Shown here piece by piece: positions 1-43,481 of a stretch of 64,000 nt of DNA. The stretch is taken from contig NC_092391.1 of assembly GCF_030028105.1 (NCBI RefSeq), positions 25,145,223 through 25,209,222 of the forward strand, given 5' to 3'. The notes beneath the pieces were generated by a model that did no database searches, was not told where the DNA came from, and saw nothing but the letters and a program-made list of their open reading frames with translations. A program made the translations under genes and the position numbers. Numbering within the stretch: the first letter of the stretch is position 1; the number at the start of each line of letters is the position of its first letter. The DNA is from Mobula birostris (taxonomy: Eukaryota).

Positions 1-300
1 TGCCGGCCAATGCTTGTGGACAACGGCTCTCTTGAAAGTGAGCACCTGGAAACGATAGCCCTGTGGGTTCTGAAAGAGTTGCACTGGAACCCTGTGCTCT
101 CCGATCAATGTGCCGTTCTTCAGAGCCAAAGCCAAGGGACTAGCCACGAATTTAAGGTCCCGACTGGCAGCTACCTCGTAACCGCACGACCTGCAGAGCA
201 AGAGCTCGTCTTTGGAGTCCTCTTCCTTCCCTTCGCTGACGTTGTGGCCGCTCACGGCAGAGGCCGACACCAGCAGCAGTGGCACCAGCATCAGCCACAT
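1..300 (-). CDS. Secreted cereblon-like CULT-domain protein, first coding exon (partial, runs off the window start)
   Basis: Manual translation from ATG at 300: MWLMLVPLLLVSASAVSGHNVSEGKEEDSKDELLLCRSCGYEVAASRDLKFVASPLALALKNGTLIGEHRVPVQLFQNPQGYRFQVLTFKRAVVHKHWPA, 100 codons with no stop. Hydrophobic signal peptide, LLCxxCG zinc knuckle and NPxGxxF motif of the CULT family. Polypyrimidine+AG acceptor at 331-330, so the exon starts at 329. Confidence 0.85.
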   Translation of the reverse strand, partial: MWLMLVPLLLVSASAVSGHNVSEGKEEDSKDELLLCRSCGYEVAASRDLKFVASPLALALKNGTLIGEHRVPVQLFQNPQGYRFQVLTFKRAVVHKHWPA

Positions 301-1666
301 CCTACAGGCCGCTTCCCACCTCGGCCCACCTAATGGGGGAAAAAAAACAGTAAATGCTGCCACAAGAAAATCCTTCTTTCTAAGATAAATATTTTGAATC
401 GCCTTCGCAGCAAATTATTTAAAGTTTCCCTAGGACCTACGTTGCAGCAAATAGTTTTAATTCTCCTCCCACTAACTGTAGCCTTTTTACAACTTACATT
501 TAAGTGTCCTAAAGCGAAAACACATCGCATTTTAAAAGCCTCAGACAATTACCTCCTCCACCCTCTACTGGTTGGAGGATTCCAATCCACCTACTGCTTT
601 TGGGATAAAATCACATGGCAATAATTATATCACTCTTTCCAAGGTTGTATATGTTGTTTTCTTTGAACAGTTCAAGAGAAACAGGCATTCATATGGAGCT
701 TTTTTTTTACAGCCACTAGCAGTTCTATCTTGCAGTTTGCAGCCAATTAACTGCTTTCATAACTTAGAAAACGGGCGCCCATTTTGCACACATCAAGGTT
801 GCATAAACAGTATAATAATATCAAAAATATATTTTATCATGATTTCAGCTGAGAGATAAAGGACAGAGGAAAAAACTGCCTTGGCCTTCTTCAGAAATAT
901 TGCTCCTGTATCTAAAACAGAGTTGGGACAAGAGAACAGAAGAAATAGAAGCAGAAGAACTTTATCCCTCTCCCACTCCCACAAGCCTTCCTTGGCATTG
1001 AAGATGTGGGTTCTTCTTCAATGCCAGAGACATTTTCCAGCACTACACCTATATTCCTTCCTGTTCCTTTGATTTATCGATCACTGTTTTGAATGAACAT
1101 AATGACCGAACATCCAGAGAATTCACCGTTGCACTTAAAGGAAGTAATTTCTTAGTCTTAGATGAACTACTCCTTAAATTCATATTTTGTCCCCTGGTCC
1201 CAGACTATTTACTCAGGAAAAAAAATCCTCCCTGCATCTAGTCTGGCAAGACGTTTTGTGAGAGGTTTGTAAGTCAAGAAACTCACAAGTACGGTGAATG
1301 TCAAGCAGTTAAAAGGCTGTGGTCATTCTGTGGCTCCTGTTGACTGGGATTCGACAGGTTGTGTGTGAGGTATTACATAAGAAGAGGTTAACACATTGAT
1401 TGTATTGACATTGATTTTCCTTTCTGTTGAGATTTTGGATATAATAGAGCAGCTTTGTCCAACAGTCATCCGTACCAGTCATGGCAAAGATATTATAAAC
1501 ATATTTATACTTCTTGCTTGGATAATGTTAGAACCTAACAGGTGTCAGTACTTGAACTGAGGAGCTCACACCATGAACTCCCTAATGAAAGGTGCTGGTT
1601 ATTACAAAACCATACTTGCAGCATTTAAGTTCCTGGGAATTAACATATCATATGACCTATCCTGGG

Positions 1667-4412
1667 AATCTTTAAGCAGATGAAGGTACACCACCATGGC
1701 CAGGAGAGAGTGAGGAGGGAAGAACTCCAAGACAGACTAACACACTGGGGTATAAAACTTCCTCTGCCCAGTGTCTCCTTAGCAAGTGTACAGTTGGTGG
1801 AGAACAAGATTGAGGACATAAGGGCAAGATTGCTGCATCAGAAGGAAATGAGGGATTGCTGCGTTCTGCATCTCATGCAGACATGGCTAACTCTGGACAT
1901 ACTGGATTTGGAGATCAGACCCGAGGACTTCTCGATACACAGGATGGATTGGACTGTTGATTCAGGGAAGGCAAAAGCTGGGGGCCTGTGTTTCATGATA
2001 AATTCTTTCTGGTGCTTGAACATAGCAGTTTTGTCACACTCTTGTTCCTCCAACCTGGAACGTATAATAGTGGCCAATTGCTCTACTTATCAAGAGAGTT
2101 CTCCTCCGTGATCCTGACCACATTTACAGTAGGAAACCCAACTGTTTGATCTCTAGACTGCATTTTGGGAAACCTGATCTCTTGGCTGTCTCCCTCCTTC
2201 CTGCATACTGGCAGAGGCTAAACAGCAAGGTTTCAGAAGTAAGGAAGCAAAAAGATGGTTGCAGGAGGCAACCACAGGATTGCTTCAAGTTGGTGAATGG
2301 GGCCAGAAACTCGTGTGGATCTGAATAAATACGCCATGGTTGTCTCAGACCTTATTAAGGCAGTCATAGACAAGTGGGTCTGCACAAAATTATTCAGAGC
2401 CTTCCCCAACCAGAAACCCTTGATGAATCATGAGATCCACAGTCTGCTGAGGGCCAGATCAGTGGGATTCAGGTCTGGCAACCAAATAAAATACAAGAAG
2501 TCCAGGTACAATCTCCAGAAAGCCATCTTGCATGCGAAGTAGCAATTCCAGACCAAATTTGAATTACTGAAGGATGCTTGACAGCTGTGGCAGGGTTTGA
2601 ATGCTAACACCTCCGACAAAGTGAAACTGAGCGACATAGGTGACAACAATGTTTCACTCCCACATACACTCAATTCCTTTTATGCTCACTTTGACAGTCA
2701 AAATATGGAGGCACCTTCACAAACTCCCACAACCCCCTGTGATTTCAGTCTCCAAGAATGATGTGAGAGCATCCTTCAGGAGAGTAACCCTCAGAAAGGA
2801 TCTGGCCCAGATGGGGCACCTGGCCAAGTACTGAAGACCTGTGCTGATCAGCTGGCTGCATTTTCACTGATAAATTTAACCTCTCACTTCAGCAGTCTGA
2901 GGTACCCACCTGCTCCAAGCTCCCTTCAGTTATACTGGTGCCTAAGAAATACGTGGTAACCTGCCTCAGTGACTATCATCCAGTGGCACTTACATCCACT
3001 GTGATGAAGTGCTTTGAGAGGTTAATGATGAAACATAGCAACTCCTGCCTGAGAAGTGACCTGGGATTGTTCCAATTTGCCTACCAGCACAACAGATCCA
3101 TAGCAGATGCCATTTGATTGGCTCTTCATTCAACACTGGACAGTTAAGATACATACATCAGGACGCTCTTCATTGATTACAGTTCAGCATTCAATACTAT
3201 CATCCACTCAAAATTAATCAATAAGCTTCAAGGCCTAGGCCTCAATACCTTCTTGGCAACTGGGTCCTCGATTTCCTCATTTGCAGACCACGGTCAGTTC
3301 AGGTTGGCAACATGATCTCCTTCAGAATCTCTATTAGCACAGGTGCACCACAAGGCTGCTCTACTCACTTTATACTGTGAGGCTAAGCACAGCTCCAATG
3401 CCATATTTAAGTTTGCTGACAACACCACTGTCATTGGTGATGATGAATCAGCATACTGTATAGGAGGGAGAATGAAAATCTGACTGAGTGGTGCCACAAC
3501 AACAACCTCTTACTGAAGGATGTAAGAAATAAAGTCAATTCAATTCAATTCAGTTTAATTCAATTCAGCGTCAGCAAGATTATTGACTTCAGGAGGAGGA
3601 AACCGAAGGTCCATGAGTCAGTCCTCATCAGGGAATCAGAGGTGGAGAGGGTCAGCAACTTTAAATTCCTCAGTGTTATCATTTCCATGAACTGTACTGG
3701 GTCCAGCACATAAGTGCCATTACAAAGAATGCACAGCAGCTCCTCTACTTTCCTTCAAGTTTGCAAAGATTTGGCATGTCATCTAAAACTTTTACAAACT
3801 TCTATAGATGTACGATGGAGAATATATTGATTGGCTGCATCATGGCCTGGTATGGAAACACCAATGCCTCTGAAAGGAAAAGCCTACAAAAAATAGTGGA
3901 TACAGCCCAGTCCATCACTGGTAAAGCCCTCCCCACCATTGAGTACATCTACATGGAGCATCCATCATCAAGGGACCCAGCATCCAGGCCATGCTCTCTT
4001 TTCACTGCTGCCATTGGGATAGAGGTACAGGAGCTTCAGGATACACACCACCAAGTTCGGGAACAGTTATTATCCCTCAAACATCAGGCTCTTTTACCAG
4101 AGGGGACAACTTCAATCACCCCGTCATTGAACTGTTCCCACAACCTATGAACTCACTTTCAATGAATCTTCATCTCATGTTCTTGATATTTATCGCTTAT
4201 TTATTTACTTACTTATTATTCTTTTTTTCTTTCTTTTTGTATTTGCAGTTTGTTGTCTTTTGAACATTGGTTGTTTTTCCGTGTTGTTGGGTACGTACTT
4301 TCATTGATTCTGTTGCGTTTCTTGGACTTACTGTGAATGCCCACAAGAAAATAAATCTCAGGTTGTATTTGGTGACATATATGTGCTTTGATAACAAATT
4401 TACTTTGAACTT
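1667..4412 (+). mobile_element. Degraded Rex1/Babar-clade LINE (APE and RT remnants)
   Basis: Frameshifted remnants IHRMDWTVDSGKAKAGGLCFMINSFWC, FPNQKPLMN, DYHPVALTSTVMKCFERL, FQFAYQHNRS and KFADNTTV; typical 3' tail ending ...aaatttactttgaactt. Confidence 0.88.
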
Positions 4413-5208
4413 TGGGCATAGATGCAATTCAATGGAAGGCATGCCAGTATCTTTACTTAGAAGATTAAGGATGTTTGGCATGTCACCGAACATTAGCAAA
4501 TGTCTATGTAATCTTTAAAGTATCCTGACTGGTTGCATCATGTTCTGGTATAGAAATTCAAACTCACAGGAATGTAGGATGCTGCAAAGAGCAGTAGTCA
4601 CAGCCCAATACTGCATTGTCACCCACTATCAGAAGTATCTACATGAAGTACTGCATTAAGAAGGCCACATCTATCAACAAAGATCTCTTCCATCCAGGCA
4701 ATGTCATCTTCTCACAGCTACCATCAGGCAGGATGTACAGAAGCCAGAAGTCTCAGGTTCAAGAACATCTACTTTCCTTCAACTTGAAGCAACTCATACA
4801 ACCCTAATCACTACCTCAGAATAGCAACTCTACAATGGACTTGGGTGATTTTTTGTTATCTGATTGTTTTTTTTCTTGTATTCTTCTTCTTGGGCCTTCA
4901 GCTCGCAGTGGAGCATATGTCATCGATGACCTCAAGTCTCCATTATCCTCTGTTCTTAGCCAGTTTCTCAGTGGTGGACCAGGAGTGCCCCATCGTCTAA
5001 TTCCTTCAGCCTCGACGTCACTCTTCCATGTTTTCTATTGATGTTCATTTTTCCTCTTTGCCTGGGGAATTTTTCTTGTATAATTTATGTTTTTCCTTGT
5101 GAATGTTGTGCCTCTGATCCTATAAGACTAATACAGCTGCAAGTAAGTTTTCAGTGCAGTCGTGATACATTTACTTGTACATATTACAAGACACTCAACT
5201 TTGACTTT
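4413..5208 (+). mobile_element. Older Rex1/Babar-like LINE 3' fragment (its 5' piece lies at ~1620-1666), interrupted by younger insertions
   Basis: KFLGINISYDLSW at 1627-1665 resumes after 4412 (LRRLRMFGMS, HPGNVIFSQLPSGRMYRS); tail ...actttgacttt near 5200. Confidence 0.65.
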
Positions 5209-6158
5209 CTCAGGACCTTGTTGGAGTTACCATTCTCTACTCTGTTCTTGCCAATTACATCTTGCCAGAATGTTGCAACTTTTCCAATCCTTGAAAGTAA
5301 AATCTGCCCTTGGGGCTTCCCCCCACCCCCCCCAAGGTCAGAATGGAAGTCCTCTTTGGCTTCATTTTTAATTTTAGGGGTTGGAGCATTGCACTGATGA
5401 TCATTGTGCTTTGGTTCCATGTAGGTTTGAGTGAAAGGGTCATGAAACACTCACTTATCTCGCAGGATACTTTGCTCTGTTGCAGTGTAGTCCATTGTTG
5501 ATTATAGATCCCATGAAGACATTTGCCTTTCCAAAAGGTGTACTCAACACCTTATTCTGTGAACTGGCCACCACCACCACCCTTTCTCGTTTCACTCAGG
5601 GTGGTGATATCAATGTCATATTTCTGAGTTCTCAAGCTACGGTTATGGTAACAAGAGTTCTGACATTTCAGATCCCAAATGTGATATAGGAAAATTACCT
5701 GTACATGATTATTTCCTTTTTCCTTAGCCGTGGCTTCCTCTCTAAGATAGTTGATGGATTTTCAACCGTATCTTCTCTCAGTACCCTTATGTTTCCTGCA
5801 GGATTCCCAAGTCAACTCTCCCATCTCCACAAACTACTCCCCTTTTTAAGACACTGTTCCATGTAATATTGGCACATATAGTAACTACATTTATTGTGCC
5901 TTTCCTTCCCATTACCTGGGAATTCAAATTCAATGTCCTTGAATGTAAAGTGAAAATTTGTCCGTATTCCTTAAAATTTACGGTGTCATATTCGCTACCA
6001 CAATGTGGTCTCTTTTTCATTGGAGATACCAAACACAGATTGGGTGACCTGTTTTATACACCCCCCCCCCCATACAGTCCCCAAGGTGATACTGGGACCT
6101 TCAGGAACTACCCTGCTCCCAATTTGACTTCTTTGTATTTGACCTTCAACAGCTCTAG

Positions 6159-6233
6159 CAGGGGTTCCAAACATTTTTTAACGCCATGGACCATAAACTG
6201 AGGGGTCCGTGGACACCAGGTTGAGAACCCCTG
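6159..6233. mobile_element. hAT-Charlie-type mini-MITE (75 bp)
   Basis: TIRs CAGGGGTTC...GAACCCCTG; 8-bp TSD agctctag / agccctag (7/8). Confidence 0.8.
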
Positions 6234-6351
6234 AGCCCTAGGGTCTTAATATTGAGCATTGTGCCAAGACAGTACTTAGTTTCAATATTTTTTTTTCCTT
6301 TTCTCTCCCCTTTCTGTTTTTTTTTAAACTGTGCCTTGACAACTTTGGTCT

Positions 6352-6421
6352 GCATCTATCACAAATATTTCCTCCATTTTCACTACGCATCTATCACAAA
6401 TATTTCCTCCATTTTCACTAC
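6352..6421. repeat. Perfect 35-bp tandem duplication
   Basis: gcatctatcacaaatatttcctccattttcactac twice (6352-6386, 6387-6421). Confidence 0.95.
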
Positions 6422-6629
6422 TCCTCCCCCATTCAAAATTTAAAGTCCGCTATGGGTTATCCTCAGTTTTTGATTCTGATGGAAGGTCTTTGCCCAAAAA
6501 ACGTTGACTGTCTCCTCACGGATGTTGCCTGACCTGTTGAATACCTCTAGCCTCTTCTCGTTCTTATGGTATAATTTTGTCTCCTCTGTATGTCCTTAAA
6601 GTTTTAAAAGAAAACACATTTTGACCATC

Positions 6630-6959
6630 CCAATGGTGCCAATCCCACCACTCGATATATTGCGTCAGTCTGGCGAACGCGATGCGATCGGCGGTACGTT
6701 TTATGCCGCCTTCTGTAAATCTGATTGGTCGGGGTCAAGATGACTGACACCATCACGGGACTAAGTTGTCCAATGAGCGGACAAAGCGTGGATGCCCCTG
6801 TTTAAATCTGGGCGGGACTGGCTAGGCGGTTAGCGGGCTCTGGGTTTTAAAAACGTTTATCAAAAAAAAAATTAGCTGGTTGGTATGTGAATAAATGAAC
6901 GCCTGAAGGGGGAAAATTATGTAAGAAGCAGCTGGATAACAGACAGTACCTGAGGCACG

Positions 6960-6960
<1 letters not shown>
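6630..6960 (+). promoter_or_regulatory. CpG-rich PKN3 promoter
   Basis: Local CpG enrichment, CCAAT boxes in both orientations (ATTGG ~6724, CCAAT ~6770), GC box GGGCGG ~6810 and TGCGTCA ~6661, immediately upstream of the first coding exon. Confidence 0.7.

Positions 6961-43481
<36,521 letters not shown>

Follow-up and report, generated by a model that had tools for sequence, protein, structure and literature searches.

A ray member of the stand-alone secreted CULT (cereblon-like) protein family and candidate ligands of its tryptophan pocket

The first 329 nucleotides of the window, by which we mean the whole stretch of 64,000 nucleotides analysed, carry the main coding exon of a minus-strand gene which is almost certainly the ray orthologue of the animal stand-alone secreted CULT (cereblon-like) protein. 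The gene is spliced and transcribed, and one-to-one orthologues occur in sharks, rays, bony fishes and invertebrates. Judged from sequence and from the model of a close relative, the product is a beta-tent CULT domain with two CxxC motifs, an NPxG hairpin and a W/W/W cage and with no LON domain. Furthermore, we strongly infer from sequence that it is imported through a predicted signal peptide and N-glycosylated. The preferred reading, at a probability of roughly 0.45, is that the protein would recognise cyclic-imide damage marks in the secretory pathway and do so independently of CRL4. As annotation the gene is ordinary, since it adds one more species to a published family and its protein is already deposited.

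Gene structure, start codon and transcription

From the ATG at 300–298 the minus-strand frame stays open to position 1, which is exactly 100 codons. An earlier note, made from the letters alone, had described this frame with a leader, a CRSC zinc knuckle, an NPQGYRF motif and the sequons NVS and NGT, and each was found where it had been placed. The conserved start codon and the predicted signal peptide occupy 247–300 on the minus strand; the leader (300–247) is hydrophobic, with a best nine-residue Kyte-Doolittle mean (KD9) of 3.08 that agrees with the signal peptide fusion proposed earlier, and cleavage is likely after VSG. Directly past this predicted site lies the sequon NVS (235–243), shared by 13 of the 15 listed chondrichthyan orthologues. 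Further along the same strand are the first zinc knuckle (184–195), whose C55 and C58 are invariant in an alignment of 83 sequences (A5), the family-wide N-glycosylation sequon (109–117), which is NGT in this ray and NDT in most relatives, and the NPxG hairpin motif NPQGYRF (49–69), which aligns with NPHGYVH of cereblon and NPAGMIF of the bacterial protein MsCI4.

On the acceptor side, a polypyrimidine tract and an AG ending at 330 precede the exon, which begins at 329. The deposited gene model places a GT-AG intron of 168 nucleotides at 330–497 (minus strand), with a GTAAGT donor at 497, and joins 525–498 to 329–1 to give residues 1–119 of P0179, the window's own deposited full-length protein. 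The upstream mini-exon (498–530, minus strand), which showed no cover among the RNA-like contigs listed, has an in-frame ATG at 525 and an out-of-frame ATG at 530. Its segment 525–498 supplies the first ten residues of P0179, and ATG 525 gives this protein a 19-residue N-terminal extension relative to ATG 300. All 15 listed shark and ray orthologues begin at the methionine matching ATG 300 (MW in 14, MMW in one), so that ATG 300 is probably the working start. The ATG at 530 opens an upstream frame of 23 codons (530–291, minus strand) which runs across the intron and ends over the conserved ATG 300; it could damp translation of the spliced form. At its other end the exon should extend past position 1 by about 25 codons, to HLG, since P0003, P0014 and P0015 end in HLGK and P0008 diverges after HLG.

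Splicing, and an end that lies outside the window, explain why the ORF track does not show the gene. The surprise in the earlier note is overstated, as the family described in 2015 has a zebrafish member, shark and ray orthologues are annotated and P0179 is deposited. The plus-strand ORF at 10–333, which had been called an antisense shadow, is best regarded as one: the exon, with which it shares register, is free of TTA, CTA and TCA codons, and the ORF has no Pfam match. An open antisense frame arose in 361 of 20,000 synonymous shuffles and is thus uncommon; with no other support, this ORF was rejected as a gene.

Read cover over positions 1–12,000 comes from one DNA run and from three RNA-like runs, which are three samples of a single study and whose RNA status is guessed; for this stretch the listing had no run recorded as RNA. 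Three RNA-like contigs span 1–329, 1–305 and 1–468 with 0 differences from the exon. One starts exactly at 329, one at 305 and one is unspliced to 468, and two RNA-like contigs reach at least 640 nucleotides beyond position 1. The splice join 498/329 is absent from the contig joints listed, a listing which leaves out a further 1072 joints. RNA-like depth is 68–211 in the bin 1–400 and 0 in unique intron bins such as 1201–1600 and 5201–6000, where the DNA run shows a depth of 11–15. This cover supports transcription, while strand, start and level cannot be read from contigs.

The window is eukaryotic (GC 0.32–0.45, CpG observed/expected 0.28), and its matches place it in a batoid fish. In the rest of it, a PKN-family kinase gene with HR1 and kinase exons lies on the plus strand at about 6960–41460. 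Its Pfam matches are HR1 (E 2e-12, 10789–10968) and Pkinase (E 5.5e-14, 40459–40641), a motif scan also supports it, and the three RNA-like runs hardly cover, or do not cover, the HR1 exon near 10.8 kb. This gene diverges from the secreted CULT gene, in opposite orientation, and its putative first exon has an ATG at 6960 and a donor after 6981. The stretch ahead of this exon (6640–7000) is promoter-like, CpG-rich (6501–7000) and has CCAAT and GC boxes. A CpG promoter common to both genes was considered and rejected, as the upstream CULT exon lies near 500, about 6.4 kb from the putative PKN start. Between the two genes, 1650–4800 and 8540–8760 hold high-copy repeats, with decayed, LINE-like frames and a short element in great abundance; DNA depth there goes up to about 1.9 million. 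Positions 6352–6421 form a perfect 35-bp tandem duplication, and over 6243–6597 a divergent second haplotype or copy is visible in the DNA run.

The full-length protein, its fold and its pocket

P0179 has 194 residues and is 100% identical to the exon fragment over 109 residues. Beyond position 1 the protein is read from this deposited record and not from the DNA: it continues with DEQFSWFPGYSW, CPRC and HLGWSF, ends in a C-terminal tail and contains FSWFPGYSW. The WFPG cage and second CxxC that had been anticipated past the window edge are both there (SWFPGYSW, CPRC), with no early stop. The first CxxC and NPQG lie inside the window, and the second CxxC and the cage tryptophans W125, W131 and W145 lie beyond it.

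A search with the exon fragment gave 18 candidates, among them eight chondrichthyan homologues at E 1.7e-45 to 4.8e-29, which puts the frame well outside what chance would give. The names on its matches are ‘protein cereblon’, ‘CULT domain-containing’ and si:ch211-51h9.7, the last of which we take to be zebrafish NP_001121712.1. Over about 100 residues the window protein is 86% identical to that of Pristis (sawfish) and 87% to that of Rhinoraja. The 109-residue fragment alone had no match in Pfam or among PDB sequences. Full-length P0179 matched 46 distinct cereblon or MsCI4 entries among PDB sequences (best E 1.5e-11), and the profile hit expected earlier was thus obtained for cereblon in PDB; in Pfam only Yippee-Mis18 appeared, below threshold (E 9e-4; score 19.8 bits, cut-off 26.6). 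Membership of the Yippee/Mis18 family (PF03226) was rejected on this score and on structural Z values of 9.0–9.7, against 13.7–15.2 for CULT. Pfam found no LON domain in P0179, and 194 residues are too short to house one; in the insect cereblon P0025 the LON_substr_bdg domain is detected at E 1.7e-7. The LON domain of cereblon is its dock on DDB1. Given the missing LON domain and the predicted secretory location, P0179 should be unable to act as a CRL4 receptor, in line with the CRL4 independence proposed earlier.

The folded model is that of the Pristis orthologue P0012 (86% identical), predicted by AlphaFold with 81 sequences, and not of P0179 itself. Its pLDDT is 87.4, with low values in the leader and the last 15 residues. 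The best fold match is the bacterial stand-alone CULT protein MsCI4 (4V2Y; Z 15.2, rmsd 2.6, 104 aligned residues, 34% identity). Superposition on the human CRBN thalidomide-binding domain, which had been suggested as a check, gave Z 14.8 over 106 residues with 32% identity (7BQU), and the CULT assignment was thereby borne out. The next families in the structure search were Mis18 and YPEL5 (Z 9.0–9.7), and the Foldseek matches listed are all MsCI4 or CRBN. The C-terminal domains of RIG-I, LGP2 and MDA5 have the same fold (Z 6.0–6.5). A homodimer prediction for residues 48–194 returned no answer (score 0.00), which weighs neither for nor against a dimer.

The alignment shows the cage tryptophans conserved, together with Asn-Pro of the hairpin and the His and Phe that follow the second CxxC. 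On the rim, Phe stands for two His of human CRBN (presumably H357 and H378) and Gln for a Glu (presumably E377); MsCI4 also has Phe at both His positions. The window protein therefore shares the thalidomide-binding fold and cage motifs of cereblon, the CRL4 substrate receptor, whereas it lacks the LON domain and has a hydrophobic leader, sequons and an extra C-terminal tail. MsCI4, in contrast, has no signal peptide, sequon or C-terminal tail. This conserved tail, in which P189 is nearly invariant (A5), has low pLDDT. The animal secreted CULT group (PMC4287342) has the same signal sequence and single CULT domain with a W/W/W cage, two CxxC motifs and NPxG; the architecture of the window protein does not differ from it, with no other domain, and the protein clusters with named fish and invertebrate members.

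Conservation and range of the family

A search of 1.84 billion representatives returned 1348 matches, of which 150 are listed. The family set comprises 133 of these with lengths of 100–300, after 15 were left out for length and P0025 and P0009 were excluded. The WWW cage is present in 113 of the 133 listed representatives and the four cysteines in 114, with fragments scored as misses. Of the 103 with at least 20 residues ahead of the first cysteine, 89 have a hydrophobic leader (KD9 of 2.0 or higher). In the column of the NGT sequon, 101 of 102 Asn have Ser or Thr at +2, against 80 of 727 other Asn in the same set, a count which treats related sequences as independent and is inflated by relatedness. 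Among the 103 sequons in this column, 17 different residues occupy the middle position, and the third is Thr in 81 and Ser in 22. All 60 homologues scored in a fish-dominated set have the sequon; it is absent from the C. elegans member.

As read from these sequences, the pattern is that expected from selection for glycosylation and is the best evidence here for a predicted secretory location, although the Asn sits within a predicted strand of the P0012 model and could be structural. This conservation across the family is an addition to the 2015 description. With the hydrophobicity and the orthologue starts, the conserved sequons support an N-terminal secretion signal, and entry into the secretory pathway is very probable. 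A KDEL-type end is absent from P0179 and a retention-like end occurs in only one of the 133 listed representatives, so that ER residence is unsupported.

Some records depart from this layout. Three carpet sharks (P0009, P0023, P0024) have an annotated short isoform of 111–112 residues which diverges just past the NPxG hairpin and lacks the cage. In the insect match P0025 and in P0174 (Heliothis virescens cereblon), part of the CULT domain is repeated identically about 22 times, which is probably an artefact of assembly or annotation; P0025, with its 22 repeats, was rejected as a family member because it is a LON-bearing cereblon with identical repeats. P0087 has a short repeat resembling theirs. 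The unnamed P0070 (476 residues) joins a CARD (E 9e-8) to two tandem secreted-type CULT copies without a leader, a RIG-I-like layout of CARD plus beta-tent known from this single record. It may be a gene-model fusion, and an ESM Atlas search with it gave no usable match. Among structural neighbours in the ESM Atlas is, at TM 0.75, a mainly oomycete cluster of 80 members (372 residues) with PRKCSH/MRH in 96%. It specifies as MRH the carbohydrate-binding domain in the oomycete fusion of signal peptide, CULT and carbohydrate-binding domain reported in PMC4287342. The secreted CULT domain is shared with oomycetes, whereas the animal protein lacks the MRH/PRKCSH domain, and a scan of 48 representatives that are longer or more distant gave no PRKCSH domain.

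The tree has 33 rows, with P0110 and P0155 left out, and is rooted at midpoint only. The window protein is sister to Pristis (99/91), within chondrichthyans (97/98) and a vertebrate group of 16 rows (100/99), which agrees with the vertebrate member of a stand-alone secreted clade foreseen in the earlier note. A 95/90 branch splits all secreted-type rows from two LON-bearing insect-type cereblons and six short leaderless proteins. Divergent members are found in the frogs Ascaphus and Discoglossus and the turtle Platysternon (P0029, P0283 and P0044; group 98/96), on longer branches; the turtle protein is deposited as ‘urocortin-3-like’. In these tetrapod members the NPxG Asn is replaced by Asp or Glu, and in both frogs His by Arg. 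As assigned from sequence, they extend the published range, which was ‘not beyond fishes’. No named bird or mammal is among the matches of the word-based homologue searches; as such searches are not exhaustive, loss in most tetrapods is likely rather than proven. This result and the loss of the NPxG Asn suggest that the function is dispensable in tetrapods.

What the pocket may read

Lupas et al. (2015, PMC4287342) described the secreted CULT family, including zebrafish NP_001121712.1, and argued that the ligand is small, widespread and found outside the cell too, rather than a linear motif. In the literature searched, which was mostly without subscription journals and supplements, we found no functional study of the group beyond that description and no measured ligand, location or partner for any member. 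The excerpted text of PMC4449219 covers the cage, the role of NPxG and uridine binding by MsCI4. According to literature abstracts, CRBN recognises C-terminal cyclic imides. Such imides form non-enzymatically at pH 7.4, are present on long-lived proteins and hydrolyse spontaneously, as stated in the part of PMC11725857 available.

On these grounds the following mechanism can be proposed. By prediction, the protein is a small zinc protein that is N-glycosylated in the secretory pathway. Its intact three-tryptophan pocket would likely bind cyclic-imide ends on damaged proteins, without a ubiquitin ligase of its own. By homology, with Phe at two rim positions as in MsCI4, of which crystal structures with thalidomide and deoxyuridine exist, the ring could be of the glutarimide, succinimide or uracil type, and imide-type binding in vitro is to be expected with good confidence. 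More speculatively, the physiological ligand would be the C-terminal cyclic imide left by backbone cleavage at Asn or Gln, and the conserved C-terminal tail would pass the bound protein on, for clearance, to a lectin or a receptor. Imide reading is the simplest view of a pocket whose conservation reaches from bacteria to humans and which selects imide-like rings. However, Lupas et al. prefer a widespread small ligand, the clearance step needs a partner as there is no effector domain, spontaneous hydrolysis of imides (PMC11725857, in part) lessens the need for a reader, and the missing retention signal and the apparent loss in most tetrapods also count against a damage reader.

In a possible though doubtful alternative, the protein would be secreted into plasma, mucus or saliva and there carry or sense a small metabolite (uridine, uracil, dihydrouracil or a lactam). 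The affinity of MsCI4 for uridine is comparable to that for thalidomide in the excerpt of PMC4449219, and MsCI4 was crystallised with deoxyuridine and valerolactam (4V31, 5OHB). The absence of a retention signal and the ligand favoured by the family paper, present also outside the cell, point the same way, and Lupas et al. cite a sand-fly salivary homologue; the available part of PMC2714351 lists a conserved secreted 17.2-kDa sand-fly protein of unknown function, but does not establish that this transcript is the CULT homologue or that it is present in the proteome. A literature listing gives MRH as a module of the ER lectins OS-9 and XTP3-B. The oomycete MRH fusion suggests a glycoprotein client and by analogy hints at glycoprotein quality control; it and the tail, which is conserved and poorly ordered, point to partners that are proteins or glycoproteins and lead us to favour C-terminal imides on damaged secreted proteins over a free metabolite.

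An uncleaved signal anchor from the upstream ATG 525, or a partner, might instead hold the protein in the membrane or the ER in a structural or chaperone role, with the pocket ligand secondary. P0179 does have its 19 extra, basic N-terminal residues ahead of the hydrophobic segment, and several teleost orthologues also have long leaders, but the uniform chondrichthyan starts, the uncovered upstream exon and the widely kept cage, which points to selection on ligand binding, make this improbable. An innate-immune pattern or danger sensor, marking microbial or damage-derived ring ligands with a pocket as in the RIG-I C-terminal domain, is likewise improbable: the shared fold and the CARD of P0070, which falls among secreted-type rows in the tree, speak for it, whereas P0070 is a single long-branch record, perhaps a fusion artefact, and the vertebrate tree is conserved and follows species. 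Many immune sensors are not conserved along the species tree. Finally, the name ‘protein cereblon’ given automatically to many orthologues could suggest a retrocopy, a decayed cereblon paralogue or a chance frame; introns, intact orthologues from corals to coelacanth, a tree position apart from LON-bearing cereblon and transcription rule this out for practical purposes, and the name is a misleading label.

In its most specific form, which we regard as unlikely, the damage-reader interpretation makes the protein a counterpart of cereblon in the lumen, which would read C-terminal cyclic imides in the ER or outside the cell and, coupled through its tail to MRH-domain lectins, send chemically broken glycoproteins to ERAD or the lysosome. 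This quality-control branch would have persisted from corals to fishes and have been lost, or be in decay, in tetrapods. If this were true, zebrafish would have a second thalidomide-binding protein. The gene itself is of interest only as a way into an unstudied family. Should the pocket bind imides, a second thalidomide- and uridine-binding protein, apparently absent from mammals, would be present in fish and invertebrate models, with consequences for teratogenicity work in zebrafish; the secretory pathway would also gain a reader of a damage mark that has so far been linked to cytosolic cereblon.
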